NCBI GenBank assembly: GCA_944389195.1
Contig: CALXLM010000020.1
Location: forward strand, 10,328 to 74,327
Length of the DNA stretch: 64,000 nt
Direction: 5' to 3'
From: an uncultured Opitutales bacterium
GTDB taxonomy: Bacteria > Verrucomicrobiota > Verrucomicrobiia > Opitutales > Intestinicryptomonadaceae
The notes under the pieces are model-generated. The model worked only from the letters and a program-made list of their open reading frames with translations, was not told the DNA's origin and searched no databases. The number at the start of each line of letters is the position of its first letter. Within the stretch, counting starts at the first letter, position 1. The position numbers and the translations under genes are program-made. This document shows, in pieces, positions 37,327-55,645 of this stretch.

Positions 37327-37433
37327 GTCAACTCAAGCGACGCTGCGGAATGCGTTTGCAACATGATAACTTGGAGAAAAAGCTTACATACACTAAGGTC
37401 AAGTCAAGCGACATTGCGGAATGCGTTTGCAAC
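37327..37433. CRISPR. Orphan CRISPR-like mini-array: two 36-bp repeats, one 35-bp spacer
   Basis: Repeat 1 (37327-37362) gtcaactcaagcgacgctgcggaatgcgtttgcaac; repeat 2 (37398-37433) gtcaagtcaagcgacattgcggaatgcgtttgcaac; 33/36 identical. Spacer atgataacttggagaaaaagcttacatacactaag (11/35 GC). No cas gene in the window. Confidence 0.55.
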
Positions 37434-37880: not shown

Positions 37881-38153
37881 TTATTTCGCCTTGAAAGCCG
37901 CGCCGGGTTTAAACCTTACAACCTTGCTGGCCTTGACCTTGATCTTCTCGCGCGTTCTCGGGTTGAAGCAGGTGCGTGCCTTGCGTTCCACGACAGAGAA
38001 AGTGCCGAAACCGATGAGCTGAAGCTTTTTGTTCTTCTTCACACCAGCTTTGATGGCCTCGATTGTCGCATTAAGAGCCTTTTCGGCGCAAGCCTTGGTG
38101 GCGTCTTTGCCGAGGATCTTTTGGATTTCTTCGATGAGTTGCTGTTTATTCAT
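37881..38153 (-). CDS. hup: HU DNA-binding protein
   Basis: MNKQQLI, LQLIGFGTFSV..RKAR..FNPRT, VRFKPG. Confidence 0.95.
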   Translation of the reverse strand: MNKQQLIEEIQKILGKDATKACAEKALNATIEAIKAGVKKNKKLQLIGFGTFSVVERKARTCFNPRTREKIKVKASKVVRFKPGAAFKAK

Positions 38154-38478
38154 ATTTTTTTGTTTGGTTGTTTGTTTGAGATAAAAAATCTACTAATAAA
38201 TATTCGTAGAATATGTTGCCGATTCTAAGGGGGAACCTGCGCAAAAATCCAGTAAAAAAATCGCCGAAAGCGACTTTTGCGAAACCTTTGCAAAGAACGA
38301 ATCCTCATTCGGATATAACCCCTTAACAAACGCGAATCTACAACCGCTATTTTTGTAAGTCAACATAAATTTCAGTAAAAAAACAGAAAAAAAACGCCCG
38401 CCAATCCTTTTGGGAAAAGAGATTGCCGCCCGGGTTCCGGCTTTTTCACCTCCGCAACTTGCGAAAAATTTAGCCTTC

Positions 38479-39825
38479 CTACCAAACGAAGCCTTCGTTT
38501 CGCCTTGAAACGAGTTCCATTCCGCTATTCCGGCGCCCGCCGCGCGCCGAATATACGGCCAGCGCAAGCGCCCAAAACCGGTCGGCGTGCCCGTCCGGAG
38601 ACCTTTCCGCCCTGAAGCGAACTCCGCCCTGTGAGGATTCCTTCCTGACCGAATGCAAATCGGCCATTATATCCATATCGTTCGGAATCCGCACTGTCGC
38701 GTTTTCAAAATGCGTTCGAAGCGGATACGCGAGCTCCTCCTTTATCCTTTGCGAAAACGAAACGCCCTCTATTCTTCCGGTGCCGTAGCGTTCTGCGGCC
38801 CTTTCGGCAAATTGGCGGCCCAAACCGCTTTCGTCTATGGCCGCGCGCCGCAAGCGCGGAAGCCGGAGATATGAATGCAGCACGGTTTCCTGTTCCGAAA
38901 ACGGAACGTCTTGAAAGGTCTTGACGTCGCGCGTAAAGAGCACGTCTCCGCAAGATTCGAGAAGCCAAAAAACCGTAAAGTCGCGCGTGCGCCCGACATC
39001 CACGCCCAAATACAGGAAGTTATCCTCCGAAAAGAAACGTTTCCAATCATCTTCGGGCGCATAGGCGCACCTTTGCATGTCGTCGTAGGAAATAAACGCC
39101 GACTTGTCGTCCGAAGGCACACACATGTACTCCTGCAAAAAACTCTCTTCGTCCACGCAGGAATTCCGCACATAGTCGAAATACGCCGCCTCGTCCATTT
39201 GGGAAACTTCGTGCTCGGCGGGAAGGCTTTCCTTCAGCTTTTTCAGCAGGCCCTGTTCGAGGGCGTCCTGAAGCGTCACCCTGTGCAGCGATATCTTTTT
39301 CGGATTGCCCCCGTAGCGGATCTCCTCTACGAGCTTGTTGAAAAAATTTTCGTTTCCGCGGTGCGTGGACAGTATCTGAAGGCTTCCTCCCCATGTAATG
39401 CCCGGATACGCTATCGCATAAAGGCGCGCCGGATCCGGATGAAGGGCGAACTCATCGAGAACGCGAGTTCCCCTCTTCCCGGCCTGCGCGTCCGGATTGG
39501 ACGAAAGGGACCATATCCTGGTGCCGTTTGAAAACTCCAAAGAGTGGGAGTCCGACGCCCCAAAAAGCGTTTCTCCCGAACACTCCTCCGCGGCGGTGTT
39601 CAATATAGAGGCGAATTTTTTGCAGTCGCCGATGAAAAGCTTGGCCTGAAGCTCGTCGCGCGAGCTCACCCACGAATCGTATTTCTCCGATGAGACGCAG
39701 TGGCGGCGCACAAGCTCGTATGAAGTGGTCCAGCTCATTCCTATCTGTCTGGATTTCTCCATAAGCTTTATCCGCGAGCGGTCGGTTATCCACGCGCGCT
39801 GGTATGGAAGGAAAAACGGCCCCAT
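38479..39825 (-). CDS. Mu gp28-like large terminase
   Basis: LPYQ, KSRQIGMSW (Walker A), LDEFA (Walker B), ILST..G...F, GVDVGRTRD, HADRFWALALA (nuclease). Confidence 0.92.
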   Translation of the reverse strand: MGPFFLPYQRAWITDRSRIKLMEKSRQIGMSWTTSYELVRRHCVSSEKYDSWVSSRDELQAKLFIGDCKKFASILNTAAEECSGETLFGASDSHSLEFSNGTRIWSLSSNPDAQAGKRGTRVLDEFALHPDPARLYAIAYPGITWGGSLQILSTHRGNENFFNKLVEEIRYGGNPKKISLHRVTLQDALEQGLLKKLKESLPAEHEVSQMDEAAYFDYVRNSCVDEESFLQEYMCVPSDDKSAFISYDDMQRCAYAPEDDWKRFFSEDNFLYLGVDVGRTRDFTVFWLLESCGDVLFTRDVKTFQDVPFSEQETVLHSYLRLPRLRRAAIDESGLGRQFAERAAERYGTGRIEGVSFSQRIKEELAYPLRTHFENATVRIPNDMDIMADLHSVRKESSQGGVRFRAERSPDGHADRFWALALAVYSARGGRRNSGMELVSRRNEGFVW

Positions 39826-39826
39826 A

Positions 39827-40273
39827 TCACAACATCTTAAGCTGTTCCTCTATCCTCGCGAGGGCCTCCTCTGAAAGGCCCTTCGGCGACGCCCTTTCGC
39901 CGCTGGCGCCGGCGTCCACCGTTTGGGTGGAGCGGGGCTTTGCGGAAGAAAGTTTCTGCACCACGCCGGCAAGCGCGTTGAAATCCGCAAGCGATATTTC
40001 GCCGCAGTTGCAGAGAATGTCGAAAACCATCTCCCACAGCAGGGCCATCGACGCCTGCTGCGTGTCGAGAACGGCGTTCCGGGACATCTCGTCCGCCCTC
40101 AGCTTTGCCTCCCTTATGCGCTTCAAATGCGATGCGAAGCCACTGCCGAAACTCTCCAAACGGCTTTTTCCGGCAGCGCACGCCGCCCGTGAACCCACGT
40201 CGCCGTCAGATACGCCGCACGTCCCGGTTTCCTCGTCCGGAGAATCAGATCTTTTTTTCCTTGCCGAAGCCAT
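39827..40273 (-). CDS. Mu gp27-like putative small terminase (N-terminally divergent)
   Basis: Position directly before TerL; C-terminal GLSEEALARIEEQL and helical core resemble the DUF3486 C-terminal half. Confidence 0.55.
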   Translation of the reverse strand: MASARKKRSDSPDEETGTCGVSDGDVGSRAACAAGKSRLESFGSGFASHLKRIREAKLRADEMSRNAVLDTQQASMALLWEMVFDILCNCGEISLADFNALAGVVQKLSSAKPRSTQTVDAGASGERASPKGLSEEALARIEEQLKML

Positions 40274-40534
40274 TTAGTAGTCCCCCGACTCCAGATAATC
40301 CCTGCCGGCAGGCGAAAGCCTTAACCGGACATGTCCCGACGAAATTTTCGACCTGCACAGTTCAAGATACCCTTTCCCCGCCAGATATTCGATGTCGGAA
40401 AGCAGCTCCTTTTCCGAAAAGACGAAGCCCGCTACGGCAAGTCCGGCGGCGAGCGTTTCCAGCGGGAGGCTCGCCGGGGACGCGGCCTCCAGCTGGGCGA
40501 GCACCGCGCGCCGAAAAAACAGTTTGTCGGCCAT
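40274..40534 (-). CDS. Mu gp26-like winged-helix protein
   Basis: 86 aa; R..VL..L, LLSDIEYLAGKGYL, LRLSPAGRDYL; syntenic with gp27/gp28. Confidence 0.65.
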   Translation of the reverse strand: MADKLFFRRAVLAQLEAASPASLPLETLAAGLAVAGFVFSEKELLSDIEYLAGKGYLELCRSKISSGHVRLRLSPAGRDYLESGDY

Positions 40535-40535
40535 A

Positions 40536-40976
40536 TCAGACCTCCCCCTTCATTTTCATCACTATGCGGTCGGTTTTCATCGAAAGCTCCGCAATGCGCT
40601 GAAAAGCCATCTGGGATTGCGCAACAAGCGCGCTTACGTTTTGCGCGTTTTTGCACACGAGTTCCCGCGTCTCCGAAAGGTTGTTCGAATACTGCTTTTG
40701 AAGGGCGCGCGTCTCCTCGCGTATCTCGGCGCGGAGCGAGCGCAAATCCTGGACGGCTTCCGATATCGACCTCATCATTTCGGCGCGAAGCTTGTCCATC
40801 TGGACGTGCGTGACATACGTGAGTTTAGGATCGGGGCGCTCCTCGTGGTGTTCCCTAATCCGCAAAATGAGATAATAAGCCCCGAGCAGCGACGTGAGCG
40901 TTATCACCGCCGTTCCGAGCACCGTTGAATTTTCAATGTCCATATCCGCCGATTCTACCGCGCGCGGGCGGCCCAT
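40536..40976 (-). CDS. Mu gp25-like membrane-anchored coiled-coil protein
   Basis: N-terminal TM followed by coiled coil; first gene of the tightly packed operon (alternative start 40943). Confidence 0.5.
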   Translation of the reverse strand: MGRPRAVESADMDIENSTVLGTAVITLTSLLGAYYLILRIREHHEERPDPKLTYVTHVQMDKLRAEMMRSISEAVQDLRSLRAEIREETRALQKQYSNNLSETRELVCKNAQNVSALVAQSQMAFQRIAELSMKTDRIVMKMKGEV

Positions 40977-41047
40977 GCAAAAGAACTTTTGATATTTTGT
41001 AAAAACGCTTGCAAACGCACCTTTTGAACCTACACTCGTCCGGGCGT

Positions 41048-41713
41048 ATGAAAAAGCTTAATACTATATTGACGGGAATATTCGCCGCGCTCTCTTTCGG
41101 ATGCGCGACGTGCGAAAGCGACGGCGGCTGGAAGCCGCTTTTTGGGGACAATTTGTCTGAAGCCGACTATGATCCAAAAGTATGGTCACTGTCGTCGGAC
41201 GGCGTGCTTTCCGCCGAAAAGGACCAAATAATATTTACAAAAAAAGATTGGAGCAATTTCGAGCTTGAACTCGATTTCAAGATTTTTGAAGGCTCCAACA
41301 GCGGCGTCGTGGTTTACTGCAGCGACATTAAAAAGTGGATTCCAAACTCCATAGAAATACAGATTGCCGACAACAGAAAGTTCGGAAAGCCGAGATGGAC
41401 CTGCGGTTCCGTTTTCGGGCTTGTCCCGTCAGAGTGGGACGCCACCCTTCCGCTTGGCGAGTGGCATAAAATGAAAGTGCGCTGCGACGGCAAAAAAATC
41501 GACGCTTGGATTAACGGCAAACACATATCGCACATGGATATGTCCAAGTGGACCGACTTGAAGAAAAATCCCGACGGTTCCGACATACTGCCGTGGATTG
41601 CCAAAGTGAAAAAATGCGAAGCCCCGACCTTCGGCAAAATCGGGCTTCAGGGAAAGCACGGGGAAGCCCCCATAAATTTTAGAAACGTAAAGATAAGGGA
41701 AATAAAGAAATAG
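41048..41713 (+). CDS. DUF1080 (3-keto-disaccharide hydrolase-like) lipoprotein
   Basis: Lipobox-like SFGC; WKPLF, NFELELDFKI, NSGV, EIQIAD, GEWH, GKIGLQGKHG, FRNVKIRE. Confidence 0.88.
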   Translation: MKKLNTILTGIFAALSFGCATCESDGGWKPLFGDNLSEADYDPKVWSLSSDGVLSAEKDQIIFTKKDWSNFELELDFKIFEGSNSGVVVYCSDIKKWIPNSIEIQIADNRKFGKPRWTCGSVFGLVPSEWDATLPLGEWHKMKVRCDGKKIDAWINGKHISHMDMSKWTDLKKNPDGSDILPWIAKVKKCEAPTFGKIGLQGKHGEAPINFRNVKIREIKK

Positions 41714-41725
41714 CGCCGCAAAAAC

Positions 41726-41764
41726 AAAAAAAAAGATTCCGGAAATTCCGGAATCTTTTTTTTT
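41726..41764. terminator. Bidirectional terminator
   Basis: A9-gattccgga-aat-tccggaatc-T9 between convergent genes. Confidence 0.9.
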
Positions 41765-41871
41765 GCAAACGCGCTCCGAAACTCGCAAAGCGCTCTACCC
41801 GAAACTTGTAAAACGCGCCCAGTAGCACGCAAAACGCCCCACCTAAATCTTGTAAAACTCTCCCCAAGCCC
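41765..41871. repeat. Five degenerate 20-23 bp tandem units starting G(C/T)AAA
   Basis: Units start at 41765, 41785, 41808, 41829 and 41852. Confidence 0.55.
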
Positions 41872-41889
41872 AAGCAATCTGGGGCATTT

Positions 41890-43035
41890 TTATCTCATCG
41901 GGCAACCGACGTTATTTTCAAAAACAAAGTCCTTTCCATGCGATCCGAGATCGCGCTTCATCTCGTCCATATAGCCGCCGAAAAGAGTATTGTTTGCTAT
42001 TACGGAATATGAAAGCCGCCTTAGAATGAATCCCACATTCGGAGTATATTTTCCCTTTCCTTTATCGTCGCGTCCGGCCCGAAACGAATTGCCCACAACA
42101 CACAAGCCTTTTGAGCCGTCGAAAATAACCTGCGCCGACACTTCTCCTACGGGTAGCATGCTGCTGTCCTTTCCGCATCTTCTAAATAGGTTTCCCGTAA
42201 CGCTGACAGCCGTAACATTTTCGGTTTTCAACCCGGCGCCCCAGTTTCTGTCGAACGAATTGCCCGTAATGTTCCATGTGTCGCCGGCGGGAATGTACAG
42301 CCCGTGTCTTTGGTTCCATTCCACGCGGTTCGAAGTAAACATCACCGTGGAGCCCACATTTTCGCAGCCGAATCCGTGAAGCCCGTTCCCCGAAAATTGG
42401 TTGTCCAAAACGAATCCGTCCCAACCCATTATCGCCATTCCGCACCCGCCGTTATTAAAGCACTGGCTGTGGCGCACTATAAAGAGCCATATGCGTTTCA
42501 GATATATACCGTGCCCGGAAAAGTTTTGGACTTTTGTATCGTCTATGACGACAGTGTCCTCCTTGGGGCTGTACTTTTGGCAGTTGTTCAGAAATATGCC
42601 GTGGATTTTGCGCTTTGACTTCGGGATGCCGGTAAGGGTAAGCCCGCGTATCCTCACGCCGAAAGCGCCGGTTATGTCGAGAAGGCAGTAGGCGTCCTCG
42701 GAGTCGAGCTTGAGTACTGCGCCCCTGTCCTCGCCCCTGAAAATCCATTGGGGCTCCGCGACCAGAGTGGTGTGCGGGTGCGCCTTTAATTCCGAGCACA
42801 AATATATCCCGCTCGGGAAATAAACAGCCCCCTCGACCTTTCCGGCGGCGTCGAGAGCGGCCTGGATTGCTTTCCCGTCATGCGTGGCGCCGTCCCCCTT
42901 CGCGCCGAAATCCCGCACGTTGAAAACAGAAGATGCACGATACTCCGCTCCGGCATGCAGGCCCGAAGGCATGGACGCCGCCACGGCGGCGGCCGAAAAC
43001 AAGCCGGTTCCCTTTATAAAATCTCTTTTGTTCAT
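41890..43035 (-). CDS. Right-handed beta-helix protein (pectate lyase superfamily) with Tat-like signal
   Basis: KRDFIK signal; FNVRDFGAKGDGATHD..AIQAALD, VYFPSGIY, Asn-ladder repeats. Confidence 0.85.
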   Translation of the reverse strand: MNKRDFIKGTGLFSAAAVAASMPSGLHAGAEYRASSVFNVRDFGAKGDGATHDGKAIQAALDAAGKVEGAVYFPSGIYLCSELKAHPHTTLVAEPQWIFRGEDRGAVLKLDSEDAYCLLDITGAFGVRIRGLTLTGIPKSKRKIHGIFLNNCQKYSPKEDTVVIDDTKVQNFSGHGIYLKRIWLFIVRHSQCFNNGGCGMAIMGWDGFVLDNQFSGNGLHGFGCENVGSTVMFTSNRVEWNQRHGLYIPAGDTWNITGNSFDRNWGAGLKTENVTAVSVTGNLFRRCGKDSSMLPVGEVSAQVIFDGSKGLCVVGNSFRAGRDDKGKGKYTPNVGFILRRLSYSVIANNTLFGGYMDEMKRDLGSHGKDFVFENNVGCPMR

Positions 43036-43180
43036 CTATGTGATACTACTTTTTTCCGCACGAAATGCCAAGTAAAAAAACCGACATTTATTTATAATCA
43101 AAAATATCAAAAAATATAGTTTTACCCAAAGTTTCCAAAGTAAATTTGCCCCGCCGGAAAATTTTGATATCATTTGCGGC

Positions 43181-44458
43181 ATGAATGCGAAAACAAATAT
43201 CCCGGCGGTAAGTTCGCGCATAATAAGGGCGCGGTTCAACCCCATAAGAAATTTGCGTCCCGACGTTTTGTCGCGGGCGCTTGAAGAATTCGAAGCCGGA
43301 AGGCTCGGAAGCGCTTCCAGAATTTTCGAGGCCATACTTAGGCGCGACGACATCATCTGCGGCCTGAATTTAAAAAGAAAAAAATCCATCGCCCGCCTCG
43401 AAAGCGAAATAGTCGTTGACGACGACTCCGCACGAGCCTTCAAGCACAAGGAAATTTTGTCCGAATTCTACTCCACCCTCGAGGCGCGCAGCTTCTGCGA
43501 CGGAAACCAGCGGGGCGGATTGAGAATGCTCGTATCGCAAATGATGGACGCAGTCCCCATGAAATACTCCGCGCACAAAATCGAATTTTTCGAAAGCGGG
43601 GGCAAGGTAAGGGGAATATTCAAGCAGTATCCGCTTTGGCTTTTTGAAAACACGAGCGGGAAGCTTCGAATCCTCAAAAGCGAAGGGCAGCTTACCGACG
43701 GCGACCCGCTCGACGAAGACGAATGGATGGTGACGTGCGGGGACGGCCTAATGGCGGCTTCTTCAATAGCGTACATTTTCAAACAGCTTCCGCTGAAAGA
43801 CTGGCTGATATACTGCGAGCGCAACGGAATGCCGGGAATAAAGGCCAAGACCGACGCATTTCCAGACTCCCCGCAATGGGAAGCCGCATGCGAAGCCGTT
43901 GCAGACTTCGGAGCGGAGTTCCATGCAGTCCTTTCCGAAGGGACAGACATCGAAGCCATAGACCTTTCGACCCGCGGCGAACTGCCGTACCCAGCGCTTG
44001 TGGAAAGGGTTGACCGCATGCTGTGCGCGCTCTGGAGGGGCAGCGACTTAAGCACCATAAGCGGGAAAAACCAGCAGGGCGCAAGCGTCCAATGGTATGA
44101 AAGCACCCTGATAGAGGAGGCCGACGCGGCAATGATAAGCGACACCCTCAACAGAAACGTCGATGCGCAGGTGATAAAGCTGGCCCTCGGGGACGACGCG
44201 CCTCTGGCCAAGTTCAAGCTCAAGCTGCCCGACTATGAAATGCACAAGTACGAGCTTGAAATAATAGAGCGTCTCGCCGCGCTCGGACTAAAGCCCGACC
44301 TAACCGAGCTGTCGCGCAGATTCGCAGTGCCCGCAAACGGCGGAGGCGGCGAAAACGCCGGGGAAATCCGCGGCGGGTCAGCCGGCGATCCGGAAAACAA
44401 CGGTGCAGAAAGCCAAAATTCCGAAGGGAAAGAGGACGAGCAGCATGAAAGCAGATAA
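43181..44458 (+). CDS. Mu gp29-like (DUF935) portal protein
   Basis: ILRRDDII...LKRK, DWLIYCERNGMP, VLSEGTDIE, length 425 aa, synteny with protease and capsid genes. Confidence 0.85.
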   Translation: MNAKTNIPAVSSRIIRARFNPIRNLRPDVLSRALEEFEAGRLGSASRIFEAILRRDDIICGLNLKRKKSIARLESEIVVDDDSARAFKHKEILSEFYSTLEARSFCDGNQRGGLRMLVSQMMDAVPMKYSAHKIEFFESGGKVRGIFKQYPLWLFENTSGKLRILKSEGQLTDGDPLDEDEWMVTCGDGLMAASSIAYIFKQLPLKDWLIYCERNGMPGIKAKTDAFPDSPQWEAACEAVADFGAEFHAVLSEGTDIEAIDLSTRGELPYPALVERVDRMLCALWRGSDLSTISGKNQQGASVQWYESTLIEEADAAMISDTLNRNVDAQVIKLALGDDAPLAKFKLKLPDYEMHKYELEIIERLAALGLKPDLTELSRRFAVPANGGGGENAGEIRGGSAGDPENNGAESQNSEGKEDEQHESR

Positions 44459-45158
44459 CGAGCTTCTGCAAGTGTTGTGTCCGTTCGGAGAGTGGCCCCA
44501 CCCCAAAGGCACACAGATCGTCGATGAAGAATCGGCGCGTAGCATGAAGCGCGCCGCGGCTTGGAAAAGCCTGACCGGCATTCCCATATACATAGGGCAC
44601 CCAGACGACGGCGGCAAAAAAACGCCCGCCGTCGGCAGGGTAAAGCGCATATGCCGCACAAAAGGCGGCATAGCGGTGGTCGCGGAGTATTCTAAAGCGG
44701 CCTACGAGCAAATCGTCGGGGGAAAGTACCGCGCAATGTCTCCCCGCTGGCAGATGAAGCCCCTCGGAAACGGCAAGTTCCGACCCGTAAAGCTCATATC
44801 GGTAGGCCTTACAAACAACCCAAACATAGAGCCGAGCGGACGCATTCTGGAGTTTCTAAGCGCCCCCGACGCCCTGTCAGAATATTCCAGACGCGGGCGC
44901 ATCGCAAGAGACAGAATAAAAAAGCTGTCGGAGTCCGCAAAATCGTGCTCCCGCGCTCTCGAAAACATTCGAAAAAGCGTGGCGTCGCTGGAGATTTCTG
45001 AACGCTTGGCGGTGCGCAAAGCCCGCGAAAGCCGCGCCGAAACGCCCGCGGCAAGCCTTGCCGACATGGCGCGCGAGCGCAGCAAACGGCTCGGCGAGCC
45101 ATATACAAAAAGTTTCGCCGCAGTTAAACGCGAACATCTCAACGGAAAACGGCGTTAA
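44445..45158 (+). CDS. Mu I-like prohead protease with short scaffold-like C-terminus
   Basis: PIYIGHPD (His), AVGRV, YRAMSPRW (Ser), LISVGLTNNPNI; start trimmed to MKADNE, overlapping the portal stop. Confidence 0.85.
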   Translation: MKADNELLQVLCPFGEWPHPKGTQIVDEESARSMKRAAAWKSLTGIPIYIGHPDDGGKKTPAVGRVKRICRTKGGIAVVAEYSKAAYEQIVGGKYRAMSPRWQMKPLGNGKFRPVKLISVGLTNNPNIEPSGRILEFLSAPDALSEYSRRGRIARDRIKKLSESAKSCSRALENIRKSVASLEISERLAVRKARESRAETPAASLADMARERSKRLGEPYTKSFAAVKREHLNGKRR

Positions 45159-45205
45159 CACGCGCCTTTTTTCACACAAAAAAAATAAAAATAAAAACTG
45201 ACAAT

Positions 45206-45901
45206 ATGACTAAATATAAAAAATTGTGCGCGCGCCTTCTCGAAGGGATCGGCGCGGCGTTCGGGAGACGGTTCTGCGCTTTCAGCAACATAGCCGAAGG
45301 CACACATGCCGGATCCATAACAATGACGGCGGAAGAGGCCGTTGACCAACCCAACCTCGTGGTGAAGGCCGGCGCAAGCGACGGCGGATTCTCCGTTGCG
45401 GGCGTCGCCGACAAGCCGCTCGGAATATGTTCCGACGAAGGCGCCGCAGGCGACAAGCTTGCCGTGCTGCTTCCGGGTTCGGCCGAAAGCACCATGATTT
45501 GCCGTGCAGCCGGATCCGTAAACGCCGGAGAAAGCGTGTACACGGCGGCAAACGGCAAGGTAAGCTCGGCCGCCGCGGACGGATCCTACAAGATAGGCGT
45601 GGCTTTGTGCTCCGCGGCGTCGGGCGGCGTGGTGGAGGTTGACCCGCAAGGGTTCGGGGAATCAGCTTGGCAATTCTACGCATGCGGAATTCACACGTGG
45701 GACAACGACACCGCCTCGAGCACGCTCGGCTGCTCCGGACTAAACGAAGGCGACGTTGTAATCGCCTCGGTTCAATCCGCCGGCTCCTCCGAAAAAACCG
45801 TAAAGGCCAGCGCAGACTCGGCGGGAATAACATTCACCCTCGATTCCGCCGGGAAGTCGGGCTCTACAAAAATATCGTGGATAGCAATAAGAAAGAACTA
45901 A
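45206..45901 (+). CDS. Capsid decoration/cement (DUF2190-like) protein with C-terminal extension
   Basis: Gly/Ala-rich beta motifs PLGICSD, AAGSVNAGESVYTAANGKV, IGVAL..A..GGVVEV; located between protease and capsid genes. Confidence 0.65.
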   Translation: MTKYKKLCARLLEGIGAAFGRRFCAFSNIAEGTHAGSITMTAEEAVDQPNLVVKAGASDGGFSVAGVADKPLGICSDEGAAGDKLAVLLPGSAESTMICRAAGSVNAGESVYTAANGKVSSAAADGSYKIGVALCSAASGGVVEVDPQGFGESAWQFYACGIHTWDNDTASSTLGCSGLNEGDVVIASVQSAGSSEKTVKASADSAGITFTLDSAGKSGSTKISWIAIRKN

Positions 45902-45905
45902 GGCA

Positions 45906-46832
45906 ATGCAGGAAGAAAACATCATAACCGCAAACGAAAACAGGTTCACCGCAGGCAACTATTCCGAGGCTCTTACGGCGTTTACAGTCGGTTGGACAGA
46001 CCCCGACAACACCGCCGAAATTCTCGACTTCATCGCCCCGCCCGTTCCGGTGGGGCGCAGGTTCGAGTTCAAGCGCAGCGACAACGCCCAGGCCTTCTAC
46101 TCGGAAAACGACGACGTCCGCTCTATAGGCTCGGAGTTTAAGCGCGTGCGCTACGACGGCGAATCCGTCAACGAGAAAACCCTCAACAAGGGCCTTACGA
46201 TACGCGTCGACCACGATGAAGTCGCCGTGGACGATTGGCAGGAGCGCTATGTGCAAATGCTGCTTCAAAGGCTGCTGCGCAACGAGCTCCGCAGGGCCAT
46301 TACCGCGCTCGACGCGATAGCTTCGCCGATGGACGACGCCGACTGGTCCGGCTCCTCCAACCCGGACGCCGACATACGCATGATGCTCTCGTCGGCGGCG
46401 GACGAAAGCGGCATAAGGCCGAACAGAATCGTCATTGGCGAATCTGCCTGGGACAAACGCATGACATGCCTCGAGTCGCAGAATTCGGCGGTCGCCTTCA
46501 AGGGGGCGGCCATGGCGCAGGACGAGCTTGCGGGGAAGTTTATGCTCGACGGCTGCCGCGTCATATCGTCGAGGTACCAAAGCTCGGCTTCGGAGAAGTC
46601 GAAGGTGCTCGGAAATTCGCTCTATGCGTTCTTTGCGCAAAATGCGGTCTCCAAGGACGAGCCGTCCAATCTCAAGCGTTTCTATACGCCGATGGACGAA
46701 GGCTCGGCGTTCAGGGTGTATTGCGACGAACACGCAAAATATACCGACATTACGGTAGAACACTATTCGAGCATCGTCGCGGCAAGCGGGCTCGGGGTGC
46801 GCAAACTCAAAATAACCGGGGAAGGAGCGTAA
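45906..46832 (+). CDS. Major capsid protein (HK97 fold, lambda E-like)
   Basis: 308 aa; DFIAPPVPV, PNRIVIG..AW; canonical position after protease/decoration and before the head-tail connector. Confidence 0.75.
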   Translation: MQEENIITANENRFTAGNYSEALTAFTVGWTDPDNTAEILDFIAPPVPVGRRFEFKRSDNAQAFYSENDDVRSIGSEFKRVRYDGESVNEKTLNKGLTIRVDHDEVAVDDWQERYVQMLLQRLLRNELRRAITALDAIASPMDDADWSGSSNPDADIRMMLSSAADESGIRPNRIVIGESAWDKRMTCLESQNSAVAFKGAAMAQDELAGKFMLDGCRVISSRYQSSASEKSKVLGNSLYAFFAQNAVSKDEPSNLKRFYTPMDEGSAFRVYCDEHAKYTDITVEHYSSIVAASGLGVRKLKITGEGA

Positions 46833-46839
46833 TACGAAA

Positions 46840-46870
46840 GCGCGCCGGAGTCTCCGCGGCTCCGGCGCGC
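46840..46870 (+). other. Perfect 11-bp GC hairpin after the capsid gene, no U-tract
   Basis: gcgcgccggag-tctccgcgg-ctccggcgcgc. Confidence 0.75.
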
Positions 46871-46884
46871 GCCGCCACAATACC

Positions 46885-47334
46885 ATGGACTGGATAAGAA
46901 TTTTTCCGGAGGACCTCGAGGAGGCTCTCAACAAACCGCAGCTCGACACGCTCAAGGCGGAATCGCTCAAGTCCCTAAAGCGCGACATTTCCGCCGACAT
47001 CATATCGACGATAGTTGCCCGCATAAGGGCGGAAATCGCCACAAGCGGGCTAAACGCCCTTGACGCCGACCATTCCCGCATACCGCCGGAACTTAAAGAC
47101 TGCGCATTAAGGCTCGCAATAGAGTCGCTGCACCTGCGCGTACCCGCCATAGAGATTTCGCAAATGCAGGCAAAACACGCAGACATCGCGCGGGAAACGC
47201 TTGCGCGAATATCGCGCGGAGAGCTCGTCGTCACGCGCCCGCGCATAGGGGTGAAAACCGCAAATCCCAGAAAAGGCGTTTACTCGGACGCCTCCAAAAG
47301 AAACGCAACGAGAAAAACTATGAAAGGAATTTGA
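46885..47334 (+). CDS. Mu gp36-like (DUF1320) head-tail adaptor
   Basis: Helical, IPPELKDCALRLAI..L, LARISRGEL; follows the capsid gene. Confidence 0.7.
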   Translation: MDWIRIFPEDLEEALNKPQLDTLKAESLKSLKRDISADIISTIVARIRAEIATSGLNALDADHSRIPPELKDCALRLAIESLHLRVPAIEISQMQAKHADIARETLARISRGELVVTRPRIGVKTANPRKGVYSDASKRNATRKTMKGI

Positions 47335-47335
47335 C

Positions 47336-47746
47336 ATGGGAAATTTAGAACGCCTGCAACGCTCAGTGGTCGAACTGCTGCGCTCGGTCTCCGATTTGCG
47401 GCTCGCCGACATAAAAGCCGAGGACTCGGACGACAACGCGGGAAAGGCCGAAGGCCTCAGGGTGACGGTTCTTCGTCCGCTGCCGCGCGCCGCCTCAAGG
47501 TATGCCGCCGGCCCCGTGTTTTCCGAAGTGGAGATTTCCGTGGAAATATCGCGCGACAAATCCATAGCTGCGCGCGCCCCCTCCATCATTTCGGCGGCCG
47601 AAAACGTATCGCGCGCCCTGCACAACTGGTCGCCGCCGGTGGCGTGCGGCTACGGGCGCGTGTACCTCTCGCAGGAAAACCCGTGGCTCGCCGACGGGCC
47701 GTCGAAAATAAGAATAATTTTAAACGCCCAATCTGTGCTGCAATGA
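47336..47746 (+). CDS. Putative neck/tail-completion protein (gp37-like by position)
   Basis: Alpha/beta pattern, V...LHNW motif, synteny only. Confidence 0.45.
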   Translation: MGNLERLQRSVVELLRSVSDLRLADIKAEDSDDNAGKAEGLRVTVLRPLPRAASRYAAGPVFSEVEISVEISRDKSIAARAPSIISAAENVSRALHNWSPPVACGYGRVYLSQENPWLADGPSKIRIILNAQSVLQ

Positions 47747-48123
47747 AAATATACTTCGCGCAAACACCCATAAACGAAAACTTCGAGTTTCCCAAAGGCC
47801 TGTCAACAGAGACTAAAAGAATATCGCAGACCGAATTCACGCTAAATTCGGCGACGGCCAAAATCTTCGACAGGGGCAACTCGAAAACGTCCATAACCTT
47901 TACGATTGAGCGGGCCCACCCGAGCGAATCGGCAGCCGACGAATTCGCCCTCACCCACGCCGAAAAGCTCGGCGCGCTTTCGCCCGCGACGCTGTCTTTT
48001 GAAACCGGCCGCGGTAAAAAAACCGAATTCGAAAATACCGCGCTCTCAAGGATAAAAATAGAAACAAACAGGCTTATTACCTCAGCCTACTACGAATTTT
48101 CAGCCCAAAAACCGAAAGGATAA
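47743..48123 (+). CDS. Hypothetical beta-rich virion protein (distal-tail-like?)
   Basis: 126 aa from MKIYFAQ; overlaps the upstream stop; alternating hydrophobic beta pattern. Confidence 0.45.
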   Translation: MKIYFAQTPINENFEFPKGLSTETKRISQTEFTLNSATAKIFDRGNSKTSITFTIERAHPSESAADEFALTHAEKLGALSPATLSFETGRGKKTEFENTALSRIKIETNRLITSAYYEFSAQKPKG

Positions 48124-48125
48124 TT

Positions 48126-48275
48126 ATGACATTGGAAGACCTTGAAATTGAGCTTAGGGACGAAATAGAGCAAATCGAGTCAAAGCTGGACGAGATGGAG
48201 GATGCCGTCGAGCAGATGAAAATAAGCATCGCAGAATGTCTCGAGCAATTAAAAACCCTAAAGTGCGACATTTAA
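48126..48275 (+). CDS. 49-aa acidic coiled-coil peptide
   Basis: Not in the track; MTLEDLEIELRDEIEQIESKLDEMEDAVEQMKISIAECLEQLKTLKCDI exactly fills the gap (2 nt and 1 nt spacers). Confidence 0.6.
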   Translation: MTLEDLEIELRDEIEQIESKLDEMEDAVEQMKISIAECLEQLKTLKCDI

Positions 48276-48276
48276 A

Positions 48277-50001
48277 ATGGACATAGAGTTTAAAATCAAC
48301 TCCCAACAAGTGGATTTTGAAGACTTTCCCGTATGCGCGGCAAAAATAACGAGGCGCTCTTCGGCCGCCGACGAGCTGTCAATATCGCTCGCCCCGCACG
48401 CGGCCGTCGTTCCGCAAATAGGAGACACCATAGAGGTCTTCTACCGCGGAGTGCGGAAGTTCGCGGGCAGAACCGCTAAAATTCCGCTTACAAAATCGGC
48501 GGAAAGGTCGGTAGTGGAAATAGTGGCTAAAAACGCATGGCTCGACCTCGAAGAAACCGTATATCAGCAAAAATGGGTGAGATCCATAAACGGAAACCCC
48601 GCAAGCGTATTCAGAAGCAGAGTCACATTGGGGCAGGATTTGGAAGGAGAAAAAATAAGCGTCGCCCAACAGCTGGAGGAAATTTTACAGTATGCAATAT
48701 CGTGCGGCGCGCAGCTGTCGGTAGGCTCCATCGACACCGACTCAGAAATGCTTCTCGACGAAACGCGCGACATATCGTGTTCTCAGGCCATAGCGCGCGT
48801 CCTAAAATGGGTCCCGAACTCGTCGGTATACTTCGATTATTCGACAGGCGGGCTTCCCGCCCTAAACATAAAAAAACGCGCCTCCCTTGAGACGGAAACC
48901 ATAGACATATCGCGCGGCTCGGTCTCCGCTGCGACGGTCACCGCCCGCCCCGACCTCGCAATAGAGGGCGTATCAATCAAATACGAACAGGAAAACAAGC
49001 AAAACGACACTACTTGGCTGGCCATATCCGAGGAGAAATATCCCCCGGACATCGTTTCCGACGCGCGCAAGACAATCGTCATGACCGTCGATTTGGACGG
49101 CTCGAGGTCGAGGTCGTCAACCTACAAAATCGTATGCGAAACGATACGCCCGGACAGCGTGCACTGGTGGAGGGAACATGTTCCGGCGCTCGCCGACGAA
49201 ACCCAAATAGAAATTCTCGAATACCAGCGGGACAATCCCAAATATTCACGCGAGCTGATTTCCGGGTCCATCGTGTCGGGCATGAACTTTGAAGTGGTAC
49301 CCGACCATGTAAGGGCAAAAATCAGATATGAAAAGCCGAACGGCGTCATCGTCACAAAAGACGTCGCAACCGCCGTCAAAACGACCAACGCCTTTACGGG
49401 AACGTTCACTATTTGGAAGACTTCGCAGCTCGCGGAAAAACGCCCGGAGGGAATCGCAAAGGCGATATACGAAGCCGCATCGTCGATGCAATACGAAGGC
49501 AGCGTATCCCTCGTGGGCGAACTCTCGGCAGACCGTTTCGGAAAGAAAATAAGGTTGTCTGGTTCGAAATATCCGGAATGGAACAGCATCGACGCGACTG
49601 TCGTCTATTCCGAAGAAAACCTGATAGATCAAACCACGCTGCTAAAATTCGGGCCCCCGAAACACCTTTATCCGGACAACATAGAGGAGCTATTCAGAAT
49701 AAGCAGAAACAGGGTGGTGACAAACGACTCCTCCACAAGGAAAACTGGGAAGCTGCCGTCGGACGAAGACGAAGACATGTCGCAGACAAAGGCCGAAATA
49801 AACGGCAACGAGGGTGATTCGTACTACGAAAGATTCATAGTCTCGGAAAATCCGTCCCTGTCCGAAGTAAGGAACATCGACCTGAACGTCGCCGACCTCG
49901 AGGGAAACGAAGCCGCAAAGATGCGCGAAATATATCTCTGCTATAACGGATATCTCGCGACGGCGAAAGTGCTCATGACAAACCCAGTAATCGAACAATA
50001 A
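48277..50001 (+). CDS. Putative baseplate hub / tail-tip (Tal/gpD-like) protein
   Basis: N-terminal DELSISL, IGDTIEVFYRGVRKFAGR, VEIVAKNAW pattern typical of hub proteins. Confidence 0.5.
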   Translation: MDIEFKINSQQVDFEDFPVCAAKITRRSSAADELSISLAPHAAVVPQIGDTIEVFYRGVRKFAGRTAKIPLTKSAERSVVEIVAKNAWLDLEETVYQQKWVRSINGNPASVFRSRVTLGQDLEGEKISVAQQLEEILQYAISCGAQLSVGSIDTDSEMLLDETRDISCSQAIARVLKWVPNSSVYFDYSTGGLPALNIKKRASLETETIDISRGSVSAATVTARPDLAIEGVSIKYEQENKQNDTTWLAISEEKYPPDIVSDARKTIVMTVDLDGSRSRSSTYKIVCETIRPDSVHWWREHVPALADETQIEILEYQRDNPKYSRELISGSIVSGMNFEVVPDHVRAKIRYEKPNGVIVTKDVATAVKTTNAFTGTFTIWKTSQLAEKRPEGIAKAIYEAASSMQYEGSVSLVGELSADRFGKKIRLSGSKYPEWNSIDATVVYSEENLIDQTTLLKFGPPKHLYPDNIEELFRISRNRVVTNDSSTRKTGKLPSDEDEDMSQTKAEINGNEGDSYYERFIVSENPSLSEVRNIDLNVADLEGNEAAKMREIYLCYNGYLATAKVLMTNPVIEQ

Positions 50002-50014
50002 AAATCTCCGCCGC

Positions 50015-50641
50015 ATGGACATTCCGAAAGAATTCACACACTTGTCGCCGATTCCATACCCTGTCACCTCCGTTTACGAAGATTACATTACCCTTCCCGT
50101 CGGCCCGTTTTCGGCGTCAGAATGCGTCGAATTTTTCTGGCGCGTAAGAAAAGTGTCCCTCTACGCGTCATTAAGCCTGTCGGTCATCGATACCGAAAAC
50201 AACTCGGTAATTTGGGACGTTTCAAAATACGCAATGCTCGACTCTGAGTTTGATTCGGGAGATTCGGCATTCGCAGTCCCCCCGCATGCCAGGTGCGCAA
50301 AAACGCATCCGTGCATGATGTCGAAAGACGGGGCGACCCTTCAGATTTCGGGCCCGTTTTTAGATGCCGAATATCCTGTTGAAACACCGATTGTCCAAAG
50401 GGGCTTCTTTTACGACATGTATCTCCAATTCGGGGCGGGCTCATTGGAGCTTTCAACGCGCTATATCGACTCCACCGCATCCAACAGTTCCGTGACAGTG
50501 GAAAGGTACCCCTTCGACATACTTGGAAAAACTTTTTTCCTAAACCTCAACATGCCGCGCATGTACATGAATCCCGCCGACCACGGACTCAATGTCAGCT
50601 ACGACTCGGAAGTTCAATTCGGATTCGAGTTTTACAACTGA
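50015..50641 (+). CDS. Hypothetical protein, last gene of the phage-like operon (possible receptor-binding/tip protein)
   Basis: 208 aa, beta-rich and aromatic; no recognisable family. Confidence 0.5.
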   Translation: MDIPKEFTHLSPIPYPVTSVYEDYITLPVGPFSASECVEFFWRVRKVSLYASLSLSVIDTENNSVIWDVSKYAMLDSEFDSGDSAFAVPPHARCAKTHPCMMSKDGATLQISGPFLDAEYPVETPIVQRGFFYDMYLQFGAGSLELSTRYIDSTASNSSVTVERYPFDILGKTFFLNLNMPRMYMNPADHGLNVSYDSEVQFGFEFYN

Positions 50642-50869
50642 CGCAATAAAAGCAAAACGCGCAAAAAACACCAGAAAACATGCGCTATGCCCTCGTTTCT
50701 GCGGACAAAAAACAAGCCTCCAAACGGCAAAATAAAAAACTCCCGCCGGAAAAATTTCTTTAATAATATTTTCGCAAAGAAAGACCCTTAAGAACGTGCC
50801 CATTAACGGAGTAATAAAATAACGCGCCATGCGGAAAAATACCTTGCGTATGCGATAAACGCCTGACCG

Positions 50870-53588: not shown

Positions 53589-54566
53589 TTGAATAATTTT
53601 CATGACATTACAAATCCTTTCGGGGAACTTTCAAGCGACCTCAATCGGCAGCTGTCGGACTTCAAGCGCTACCTTTTAAAACAGGCCTCCGCCTTCGAGA
53701 GGGAGGTGCGGCCGGCGGCAAGGGACGCCATTTATCCGCGCGGCAAATACATAAGGCCCATTCTGGTGTTTTCGTCCGCGCTTGACGGCTCCGACGAAAA
53801 GTCCCTCGTGAGGCGCGCCGCCATAGCCGAACTCGTGCACCTTTCCACCCTCATACACGACGACGTCATCGACGAAGCCGACATGAGGCGGAACAACGAA
53901 ACGGCCTTTAAAAAGTACGGCGCAAAAACCGCCATACTTCTCGGGGACGCAATATTCTCGCACATGATGTCGCTCGCCTTTGAAGAAAACAGCATGGACG
54001 TGCTGAAAAAGACGGCGGACTGCGTGAGGACAATCTGCGAGGGTGAAATAAAACAGACGCTCGCAGACAGAACCAAAATAGTTTCCCGAAAGAAATACTA
54101 CGACGTCGCCTACGGAAAAACAGCCGCCCTGTTCGAACTGTCGTGCCATTTCGGCGCGTCGGTGCGCGATAAAAGCCAAAAATGGACGAGGGCCGCCGAA
54201 AAGGCGGGAAGGCAGCTCGGAATAGCCTACCAAATTTACGACGACATCTGCGACTGGTTTATGTCGGAAAAGGCCGCCGGGAAAACCCTCGGCACGGATT
54301 TGACATCGGGCAAACAAACCTATCCCCTAATAGTGCTGCTGGAGAAGCTTCCCGCAAAGGAGTCGGCCCGCCTGGCAAAAAACCTTCCGAACGAACAGCC
54401 TTCAAAAATAACCGAAATGATGCGTTCATTCGGCGTTCCCGACGACTGCCAAAAAGAGTTCGCAAGGCGCGTAGGACGGGCCGAAAAATCGCTCGAGAAA
54501 TTCCCGTCGGAAAACCGAAAACTAATGAAGTTCTGCTCGGCCATGCGCGCGCTGAAATTCGGCTGA
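53589..54566 (+). CDS. Polyprenyl diphosphate synthase (IspB-like)
   Basis: GKYIRP, LIHDDVID FARM, KTAALF, YQIYDD SARM, GTDL..GK.T.P. Confidence 0.9.
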   Translation: MNNFHDITNPFGELSSDLNRQLSDFKRYLLKQASAFEREVRPAARDAIYPRGKYIRPILVFSSALDGSDEKSLVRRAAIAELVHLSTLIHDDVIDEADMRRNNETAFKKYGAKTAILLGDAIFSHMMSLAFEENSMDVLKKTADCVRTICEGEIKQTLADRTKIVSRKKYYDVAYGKTAALFELSCHFGASVRDKSQKWTRAAEKAGRQLGIAYQIYDDICDWFMSEKAAGKTLGTDLTSGKQTYPLIVLLEKLPAKESARLAKNLPNEQPSKITEMMRSFGVPDDCQKEFARRVGRAEKSLEKFPSENRKLMKFCSAMRALKFG

Positions 54567-54595
54567 CGTTACCCCGGGGGAAGCGTTTTTTTCAA

Positions 54596-55645
54596 ATGGA
54601 CACCAACGTCAAACGCGGAAACATTTACGTCGTCGGAATATCGCATCTGTGCGCCGACGCGGAAACGCTCGGCAGATACGGCGTACCCGGAGATTCGGCA
54701 GCCGCTCTTGAAAGTTCCGTTTTGTCGTCCGTCCGGATATCCGAAGCGCTTATTCTCAGTACATGCAACAGGGTCGAAATATACCTCGTGTCTGATTCCG
54801 ACAACTGCGCACAGGCCGCGGCCGAAGCCTTTGCGAAAGCCGCCGCGACAGACGGCGACGCCGAAGCCTTTAAGCGCGCGGCTTATATCAAAAAAAATGG
54901 CGACGCCATCTGCCATATATTCGAAGTGGCGTCGGGCCTGCAGTCGCAGATGACCGGAGAGACCGAAATACTCGGCCAGGTAAAGGCCGCATATTCGCGT
55001 TCCTATCTGGCTGGGCACTGCTCGACGGTTCTGAACACAGTTTTCCAAAAGGCCAACCAATGCGCGAAATGGGTGAGGACAAACACCGACATCGGGCACG
55101 GCAAAATAAGCCTAGGATCCGTAGCTTCAGAATTGGCAGACAGAATCTTCAACGATGTTTCGAAGGCAAAAATACTCCTCATAGGTTCGGGAGAGGCAGG
55201 AAGGCTCGTGGCCGACGCACTTTTCGTGCGCGGCGCAAAAAATATAACGGTTTCAAGCAGAAGGCGCGAGCACGCCGAAACGCTCGCCGCCCAGATAGGA
55301 GGCCGGGCTGCCGACATGGACGAATCTGCCGAACGTCTGCACGCATTTGACATAGTTATAACGGCAAGTTTTTCGCCCGTGCCGCTTATTGACGCAAAAC
55401 GCGCGAAACGCGCTGCGGCCGAACGCGCCGGAAAACCGCTGTTCTTGATTGATCTGGCGGTCCCCCGCAACGTAGAGCCGGCATGCTCCAATATCGAGGA
55501 TGTCTATCTTTACGACCTTGAAGACCTATCAAAAATAGCCAACGAAAATATCGCCATGAGAAAAGCGGAAATAAGCACGGCGCGAAAATCGATATTTGAA
55601 AAGGCTGGGGCGGTAGCCGACAGACTGGGCTTTACTTTACCATAA
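54596..55645 (+). CDS. hemA: Glutamyl-tRNA reductase (short form)
   Basis: LSTCNRVE, VASGLQS..GETEILGQVK, IGSGEAG, DLAVPRNVE; start trimmed to MDTNVK (349 aa). Confidence 0.9.
   Translation: MDTNVKRGNIYVVGISHLCADAETLGRYGVPGDSAAALESSVLSSVRISEALILSTCNRVEIYLVSDSDNCAQAAAEAFAKAAATDGDAEAFKRAAYIKKNGDAICHIFEVASGLQSQMTGETEILGQVKAAYSRSYLAGHCSTVLNTVFQKANQCAKWVRTNTDIGHGKISLGSVASELADRIFNDVSKAKILLIGSGEAGRLVADALFVRGAKNITVSSRRREHAETLAAQIGGRAADMDESAERLHAFDIVITASFSPVPLIDAKRAKRAAAERAGKPLFLIDLAVPRNVEPACSNIEDVYLYDLEDLSKIANENIAMRKAEISTARKSIFEKAGAVADRLGFTLP

Follow-up and report, generated by a model that had tools for sequence, protein, structure and literature searches.

To our knowledge, gene transfer agents (GTAs) have a mere handful of known independent origins, none of them in Verrucomicrobiota and none with a Mu-type head. 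The GTA of Rhodobacter capsulatus (RcGTA) is encoded by chromosomal phage structural genes that lack replication and lysogeny functions, are inherited vertically and evolve under purifying selection; these genes are dispersed over several loci that are expressed together, with fibre and lysis genes apart from the head-tail cluster. The PBSX particles of Bacillus are also fixed in their host, package chromosomal DNA and do not propagate themselves, and capsid-forming phage-inducible chromosomal islands (cf-PICIs) supply capsid, portal, protease and terminase from genes of their own but have no normal tail. We compared with these systems a locus at positions 38479-50641 of a 64,000-nucleotide (nt) stretch of DNA, called the window here, from an uncultured Opitutales bacterium (GenBank assembly GCA_944389195.1, contig CALXLM010000020.1, positions 10,328 to 74,327 of the forward strand). 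From its genes alone, we read this locus as part of a chromosomally fixed, vertically inherited, multi-locus GTA-like particle system with a Mu-type head and a stub tail, a reading that we consider fairly probable.

Family assignments were made by profile searches against Pfam and PHROG, and folds were assigned from AlphaFold2 (AF2) models compared by Foldseek, using a focal assembly (G000) of 2.37 Mb that is 96% complete. The profile searches confirmed the original prediction, made from the letters of the window, of 14 intact Mu-type virion genes in Mu order that form two divergent operons among housekeeping genes: a minus-strand packaging block of four genes and a plus-strand head block of ten, flanked by hup (the HU gene) on one side and by the TPR-LysM and purH genes on the other. 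This arrangement recurs in many independent assemblies, which excludes an assembly artefact. By its family matches, the gene set encodes a Mu-type packaging head (gp27-like protein, large terminase subunit (TerL), portal, gpI protease, cement and capsid), and with the help of structural models it is predicted to encode a neck and an extremely short, non-contractile tail (gp36-like adaptor, 136-amino-acid (aa) protein, tube-fold protein, 49-aa coiled coil, hub and tip).

As far as genes can tell, the system resembles both RcGTA and PBSX. Like RcGTA, it consists of chromosomal phage structural genes without replication or lysogeny genes, passed on vertically under purifying selection and dispersed over several loci, with the fibre gene and a candidate lysis gene apart from the head-tail cluster; hub and tube folds are common to both, and the RcGTA virion is among the Foldseek matches. 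Like PBSX, its particles would be fixed in the host, would package chromosomal DNA without propagating themselves, and may have a killing role. Unlike RcGTA, the module has a portal, TerL and protease of Mu type (PF06074, PF10123), which would mean an independent origin. In place of a recognisable tape measure it has just the 49-aa coiled coil, its tail is predicted to be a stub, and it belongs to a host in Verrucomicrobiota. Its head proteins match Mu-type families (PF06074, PF10123, PF11985) and RcGTA appears only as a distant fold match, all of which places it outside the RcGTA family (Rhodogtaviriformidae) as judged from sequence. PBSX, in turn, has a contractile tail, a single locus and its own repressor, and is unrelated in sequence. 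With Mu and Mu-like prophages (MuSo2, FluMu), the module shares the hub fold and the gene order (gp25-, gp26- and gp27-like genes, TerL, portal, gpI, capsid and gp36-like gene). It differs from them in lying at fixed sites, in split loci that are inherited vertically, and in its lack of Mor, MuF, sheath and tape measure anywhere in the assembly; we also recognised no MuA/MuB, Mu ends, repressor/Ner, C, lysis cassette or long tube. With a Mu-type head module present and transposition and regulatory genes not found, the gene content is not that of a transposable Mu-like prophage. In full-text searches of the literature, no account of a system of this kind in Verrucomicrobiota came up; the original prediction knew of no described Mu-derived GTA there. 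A region of 'Ca. Marcellius' with a pair of phage proteins resembling those of Mu, along with a large terminase, surrounded by short hypothetical genes with best hits in Verrucomicrobia, was read as a degraded prophage (PMC6920513); likened by description only, it is probably the same module.

The absence of the phage functions that the original prediction had listed as missing was confirmed in part. Searches of the whole assembly gave no match to rve, sheath, tape measure, MuF or Mor, and replication, transposition and lysogeny genes were found neither in the window nor in the assembly searches. What the chromosome holds is a set of phage-derived structural and packaging genes unaccompanied by replication, integration or lysogeny genes, the three integrase-family matches in the assembly all lying on other contigs. 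A search of the assembly for Mu DDE_2 also gave no match, but its control was silent too, so this search is uninformative. Two details did not stand: a tube-fold protein is present, and a fibre gene and a candidate lysis gene were located elsewhere in the genome (see below). Searches for the missing tail genes in the rest of the genome, using tblastn with proteins of other families' modules and of a second Mu-like element, brought nothing new. That second element occurs in about ten genomes of the genus (loci L029 and L030, at G003:C1:16000-35999 and G005:C4:27000-46999, where G, C and L are our labels for genomes, contigs and loci), carries a D12 adenine methylase gene between its capsid and adaptor genes, and is 33, 40 and 54% identical to the module in portal, capsid and TerL, respectively. 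It is probably a true prophage family of the genus.

The system is nearly universal in some families of the order and absent from others. Within the genus, the portal gene was found in 22 of 24 species and the TerL gene in 23 of 24, so the patchy presence in close relatives that the original prediction had named as an objection was not seen. Among 301 genomes drawn evenly from the order, 106 had a close portal homologue, always as one match each, and families were nearly all-or-none, with 22/24, 8/11, 15/17, 3/3, 12/13 and 7/8 genomes positive in the carrier families and 0/24, 0/24, 0/23, 0/10 and 0/9 in the others. Dozens of carrier genomes are only 0.7-1.1 Mb in size, and three small genomes that lack purH still keep the module. 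The hub alignment proved too divergent as a query for the genome scan and the capsid alignment was used instead; scanning the GTDB species genomes with this capsid profile found relatives in 175 species, and the best 80 of these 175 were all Opitutales/Puniceicoccales with the same gene order. Among them are the gut bacterium 'Candidatus Merdousia', Intestinicryptomonas porci, strain Marseille-Q1082, marine Cerasicoccus and Ruficoccus, and many termite-gut metagenome-assembled genomes (MAGs). The 2.9 million contigs of IMG/VR, by comparison, held eight relatives, only two of which were of the module type.

The chromosomal positions of the genes point in the same direction. Other families have the module as a single colinear run of ~11 kb, all on one strand, from the gp25-, gp26- and gp27-like genes and TerL through the portal to the hub and tip, and in several of these lineages the flanking genes are conserved between related species. 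In the focal genus, the module is broken between TerL and the portal. In all 20 genus genomes examined, the HU gene has the packaging block directly upstream of it and on its own strand, and the head block adjoins TPR-LysM/purH in at least 13 species. The two blocks are adjacent and divergent only in the focal genome and a few close relatives; in most species of the genus they are on different contigs or tens to hundreds of kb apart. Despite being unlinked, TerL and the portal gave distance matrices that correlate at r = 0.89 and trees with the main clades in common, and their distances correlated with those of purH at r = 0.43 and 0.60, respectively (p <= 0.0006). No phage-size DNA segment in the genus holds all loci, so that the particle would probably be unable to transmit its own gene set, and judged from this arrangement a self-transmitting phage could not have two unlinked blocks at fixed sites. 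Vertical inheritance at depth is argued for by four features together: the distribution by family, the single copy, the gradients of identity and the local synteny.

The genes are also under purifying selection. In species pairs with unsaturated synonymous divergence (dS of 0.06-0.7), the ratio of nonsynonymous to synonymous substitution (dN/dS) was 0.01-0.06 for the capsid, 0.03-0.07 for the portal, 0.05 for TerL, 0.06 for the coiled coil, 0.06-0.12 for the hub and 0.15-0.28 for the tip, alongside 0.02 and 0.11 for the host genes purH and TPR-LysM, respectively. Values of 0.35-0.67 for the tube gene were set aside as an artefact of a query that included an out-of-frame overlap. Reading frames were intact in ~80 loci, and neutral decay, another outcome that could have spoken against the original prediction, was therefore not seen. 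The sole broken core gene that we noticed was the portal of one species (G015:C3:45369-46575, also L036), which lies in two frames with a stop, whether through a true frameshift or through a fault of the assembly. GTAs, too, are characterised by purifying selection and by being inherited vertically along with the host, and on this evidence the element appears to be kept by its host and not to be a decaying prophage. The idea of a host-kept GTA-like module is supported as a genomic signature only, and every testable outcome that the original prediction had listed against it came out the other way.

The main new result of the analysis, as recognised in sequence, is a promoter motif shared by the unlinked parts of the system. 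The 26-nt motif, with the consensus ATCAAAAGTTTCCAAAGTTAATTTGC, is made of two CAAAGT-type repeats followed by TTTGC. We compared the sequences that precede the packaging block (21 genomes) and the head block (44 genomes), and found a common layout in which the motif is followed by a spacer of 17-19 nt, a TAnAAT box and, 7-9 nt on, the ATG; this short distance from box to start codon suggests leaderless transcripts. The packaging-operon promoter (40952..41002, minus strand) has the motif at 41002-40977 and a TAGAAT -10 box at 40957-40952 with the ATG 8 nt downstream, scores 30.3 with a position weight matrix (PWM), and keeps its layout upstream of the block in 21 genomes. The head-operon promoter (43097..43173, plus strand) has one motif copy at 43097-43122 followed by the main 26-nt motif at 43124-43149, a TATCAT -10 box at 43168-43173 and the ATG at 43181. 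It scores 34.4, and of the 44 regions upstream of the portal that were compared, 41 keep it; the exceptions are three outlying species with diverged sequences. Both operon promoters were also picked by a generic sigma-70 scan, with TTGCCC-16-TATCAT as the match at the head operon.

When the PWM, which was built from the promoter sites, was scanned over the whole genome, only six sites scored above 24, the maximum in a shuffled genome used as control being 15.3. These six are the two operons, C2:9079 (fibre), C53:55347 (membrane protein), C34:94139 (contig end) and C26:130767 (recombinase). The exact degenerate pattern gave 11 distinct matches in five relatives, eight of them at the two operons, and the reversed-pattern control gave none. 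The motif was undetected in the modules of other families. At the C34 site (C34:94112-94225), a double motif copy (scores 29.0 and 20.5) faces the contig end, so that the assembly includes no more than about ten initial codons (METRIKTQF...) of the gene downstream.

The C2 site heads a 748-aa tail-fibre gene on another contig. The N-terminal 160-270 residues of this fibre are conserved in 21 of 24 genus genomes and the C-terminal part is replaced between species; orthologues in three relatives (G018, G003 and G005) have the same promoter. In the modules of other families, the fibre N-terminal domain also starts a large gene (470-1010 aa) that lies between the tube and coiled-coil genes and is followed by a Phage_tail_APC fibre-assembly chaperone gene (E = 5e-20). 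One copy of this large gene has a concanavalin-like lectin domain, and a holin of the Pam3 type (E = 3e-16) is encoded in one of the modules. Because the fibre N-terminus is homologous to this in-module gene, the fibre gene appears to have moved to a third locus in the focal genus, keeping the module promoter. A C-terminal domain of the focal fibre matches a protein on a G022 contig that bears the second Mu-like element.

The C53 site heads the gene of a 155-aa protein of the phage family phrog_38283 (E = 9e-8), apparently a multi-pass membrane protein, which is a tentative candidate for the lysis gene. As a firm member of the system it was downgraded, since the motif is found in some orthologues only and several of these genes adjoin recombinase copies. 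The recombinase itself, a tyrosine recombinase at C26:130789-131832 in the focal genome, has the same 26-nt motif and leaderless layout and reaches five to six copies in relatives. We rejected it as a core part because it is multi-copy, patchy, partly made up of pseudogenes and present in G001, a genus member without the module, and we take it to be a mobile family in its own right, served by a promoter of the same type.

The packaging genes are all on the minus strand. TerL (38479..39825) is a Mu/T4-type ATPase with an RNaseH-like nuclease and matches PF17289 (Terminase_6C; E = 1.7e-10), PF03237 (E = 2.1e-8) and phrog_5909 (E = 1.4e-33); its KSRQxG, LDEF and STHRG motifs and three nuclease Asp motifs showed no variation in 20 genomes. 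Directly upstream of TerL, as always in relatives, is the gene of a Mu gp27-like protein and candidate small terminase (39827..40273), which matches PF11985 at an E of 1e-4, a match that falls short of the Pfam cut-off, and phrog_426 (terminase small subunit) at 0.004. It is preceded by an 86-aa protein gene at the position of Mu gp26 (40274..40534; phrog_436, E = 3e-4) that is kept in 20 of 20 genus packaging blocks and also in other families; a DNA-binding winged-helix fold would be our guess from its sequence. The first gene of the operon (40536..40943) encodes the gp25-position protein of ~135 aa, with 54-78% identity across 20 genus genomes and, by eye, apparently one N-terminal membrane helix and a long coiled coil. 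Its start is most likely at 40943 and not at 40976, because the -10 box of the promoter falls inside the longer open reading frame from 40976.

The head operon, on the plus strand throughout, begins with a portal gene of the Mu gp29 type (43181..44458; Portal_Mu, PF06074, E = 2.2e-55), which is present in one copy per genome and has 62-82% identity within the genus and 44-55% to other families. It is followed by a Mu gpI-like head maturation protease/scaffold gene (44403..45158; PF10123, E = 3.4e-8; phrog_328, E = 1.1e-11), the start codon of which is uncertain, a cement/decoration or scaffold protein gene (45206..45901; PF09956, E = 3.2e-8; phrog_673, E = 1.2e-9) and the major capsid gene (45906..46832; phrog_1005, E = 7.4e-9). 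An alignment of 14 capsid sequences from several families has 93 invariant columns. The head-tail adaptor (46885..47334), a DUF1320/Mu gp36-like protein, gave a profile match to PDB chain 8rka (a DUF1320 protein; E = 0.0027) and is kept in nearly all loci. The 136-aa neck protein (47336..47746) is conserved in position and sequence in 59 loci and had no match in family-profile searches. Searches of PDB by sequence profile gave no match for this protein or for the hub, tube and tip proteins.

For the 126-aa and 574-aa proteins, AF2 models were made with alignments. The first (47743..48123) has a predicted local distance difference test score (pLDDT) of 94.9, and its matches (E = 1e-4 to 1e-2, probability 1.00) are tube, tube-initiator and Hcp proteins from phage 812, R4C, Mu and RcGTA. 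The model thus has a tail-tube/Hcp fold, and the earlier statement that the locus lacks a tube gene was wrong. Next comes a conserved open reading frame for a 49-aa acidic coiled-coil protein (48126..48275). Both within the genus and outside it, nearly all of the loci examined have such a coiled-coil frame of 36-56 aa (mostly 43-53) immediately 5' of the hub gene, and we consider its product a candidate for a miniature tape measure or plug. The 574-aa protein (48277..50001; pLDDT 84.6) is, by its model, a baseplate hub of the VgrG/Mu gp44/Afp8 type, matching 7aef_q (E = 1.7e-15), the MuSo2 43-kDa tail protein (4e-12) and Mu gp44 (1.5e-10). The coiled-coil and hub genes of one MAG from a termite gut are separated by an inserted gene for a transposase of the PD-(D/E)XK family (L090:6624-7841).

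The last gene of the operon encodes a 208-aa tip protein (50015..50641), and a homologue of ~180-225 aa follows the hub in nearly all loci. Tip homologues in two other lineages are elongated at the C-terminus to 400-509 aa (L019:1245-2774 in G037 and L018:9820-11022 in G033). In G037 the extension contains a pre-toxin domain of the PT-TG family (E = 2.9e-13), and the C-terminal region beyond it is toxin-like by eye, an architecture that suggests a polymorphic toxin mounted on the particle tip. The extension in G033 had no family match, and ~45 other tip proteins consist of the ~200-aa core only, without a toxin domain.

If the system works as a GTA, a regulator would fire the shared promoter in some cells, and the units would be expressed together. 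Heads would assemble and would then take up DNA by the headful, most likely that of the cell, since the whole gene set is found on no one unit that could be packaged. Stub tails and fibres would attach to the filled heads, with the 49-residue coiled coil as a tape measure giving a tail of ~7 nm, or one to two tube rings. Cells would lyse via the holin-type membrane protein, and the variable fibre would bind related cells, into which the DNA would be injected.

Several observations weigh against this reading. In other families the module is colinear, so there its inability to package itself rests on head size. The site of the head block in G001, a genus member of 1.6 Mb, is cleanly empty between the genes that flank the block elsewhere, and neither TerL nor the fibre gene is present in this genome; a host can thus do without the system and lose it as a whole. 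We know of no characterised precedent for DNA delivery by a tail of this make-up (tube ring, 49-aa coiled coil and hub). The PT-TG domain on the tip of one other lineage suits a weapon better than a gene donor. The motif also precedes the mobile recombinase family, and so may not be host-specific, which weakens the claim of purely 'host' regulation. The membership of the 155-aa membrane protein is uncertain, as its gene often adjoins the multi-copy recombinase and occurs in G001, and an endolysin was not identified.

The last point but two leads to a different function, that of a PBSX-like killer or toxin-delivery particle in which hub and tip puncture competitors and the packaged DNA is incidental. 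We think this unlikely, though a serious alternative. It would fit the VgrG/eCIS spike-hub fold of the hub (eCIS, extracellular contractile injection system), the pre-toxin domain and the long unmatched extension on the G037 and G033 tips, and a fibre that keeps its N-terminus but exchanges its C-terminus rapidly, as a part aimed at variable surfaces would be expected to do. Toxin-type tips, however, are found in two lineages only, and there is no sheath or other force-generating part. The TerL motifs, portal and capsid are the most strongly conserved components, and a pure puncturing device would not need them. Tailocins and eCIS have a contractile sheath and tube and no capsid; the module is without a sheath but has capsid, portal and terminase. 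A combination of the two functions, which we consider rather improbable, would be a hybrid particle, not described so far, in which a DNA-filled Mu-type head sits on a VgrG-like hub via one or two tube rings and a ~50-aa coiled coil, serving the host as an exchange or injection organelle that in some lineages delivers both DNA and toxins. If such a particle exists, it might supply recombination that offsets decay in families with genomes of 0.7-1.1 Mb.

The evidence from selection says that the genes are kept, not for what, and it would also suit another host role, such as anti-phage defence by diverting packaging or tails, release of DNA for biofilm or nutrition, or an intracellular compartment. 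The second Mu-like element of about ten genus genomes could be the target or partner of such a role. We regard a role of this kind as improbable, because the module has its own tube, hub, tip and fibre, together with a fibre chaperone and holin in other families, which point to an extracellular, cell-binding particle, and because it is kept in 0.7-1.1 Mb genomes where no second portal type was seen.

The gene set is rich in head and packaging functions and poor in tail functions, and a related Mu-like prophage family is present in some genus genomes. Both facts would be expected of a helper-dependent satellite that borrows its tails and mobilisation, as cf-PICIs do. Yet cf-PICIs are mobile elements of patchy occurrence that depend on the tails of a helper and possess att sites, replication genes and an integrase, and the module resembles them in none of this: at the locus we found no integrase, replication gene or convincing att-like flanking repeat. 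The fixed chromosomal sites, unlinked blocks and family-wide, single-copy vertical distribution, the module's own tube, hub, tip and fibre, and the near absence of module-type contigs from viral contig collections make a satellite very improbable. Finally, a functionless, decaying remnant of a Mu-like prophage would explain the lack of transposase, repressor, lysis cassette, MuF, sheath and tape measure, the one species with a split portal and the one genus member without the module, but is hardly credible for an element with low dN/dS in every gene measured, invariant TerL catalytic motifs and intact frames, a promoter conserved across unlinked loci, and retention by whole families that include highly reduced genomes.

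If the GTA-like reading is right, the system would represent a new independent origin of GTAs, on a Mu-type head and in Verrucomicrobiota. It spans more than 100 Opitutales/Puniceicoccales species from guts, termite guts and the sea, including families with genomes below 1.1 Mb; reduced genomes are expected to shed useless genes, yet these keep the module. Were DNA moved by the particles, gut Verrucomicrobia would be exchanging genes by a major route that has gone unrecognised, and the particles would bear on how reduced genomes avoid decay. The predicted stub tail of tube ring, miniature coiled coil, VgrG-like hub and tip would add a minimal type to the known tail architectures. Carriers are available in culture: Intestinicryptomonas porci Cla-KB-P66 and Puniceicoccaceae bacterium Marseille-Q1082, which have the split arrangement, Cerasicoccus frondis (NBRC 105381), which has the colinear one, and C. 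maritimus. The shared promoter motif offers a direct handle on the regulator.

Two genes lie between the blocks and outside the module. A DUF1080 (3-keto-disaccharide hydrolase) gene at 41009-41713 is a common host neighbour of the packaging block within the genus, and convergent to it, at 41890-43035, is a gene for a right-handed beta-helix protein. The latter matches PHROG tailspikes and was considered as a tailspike, a role that we rejected as neither it nor a homologue was found at the locus of any relative. The flanking genes are housekeeping genes on both sides, namely HU, cupin, ApbE, ilvN, ilvC and hemC on the HU side and TPR-LysM, purH and hemA on the other.

Some further features of the window were noted. 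An imperfect 30-nt direct repeat, 77% identical, has one copy in the head-operon promoter (43136-43165) and the other 87 nt past the tip gene (50728-50757); the pair brackets the head operon and may be due to chance or be a terminator-like element. Two 36-nt direct repeats, 92% identical and 71 nt apart, lie just downstream of the cupin gene (37327-37433); they had been labelled a CRISPR-like mini-array earlier and reappeared in our repeat scan. The HU gene (37881-38153) has its own promoter-like site at 38335-38363, within the 325-nt gap to TerL. HU is required for Mu transposition. Haem genes are found near the module both here (hemC and hemA, at 33428-34297 and 54182-55645) and in Cerasicoccus frondis (hemF and hemE, L072:15643-17939), which may be the trace of an old shared chromosomal neighbourhood or a coincidence.

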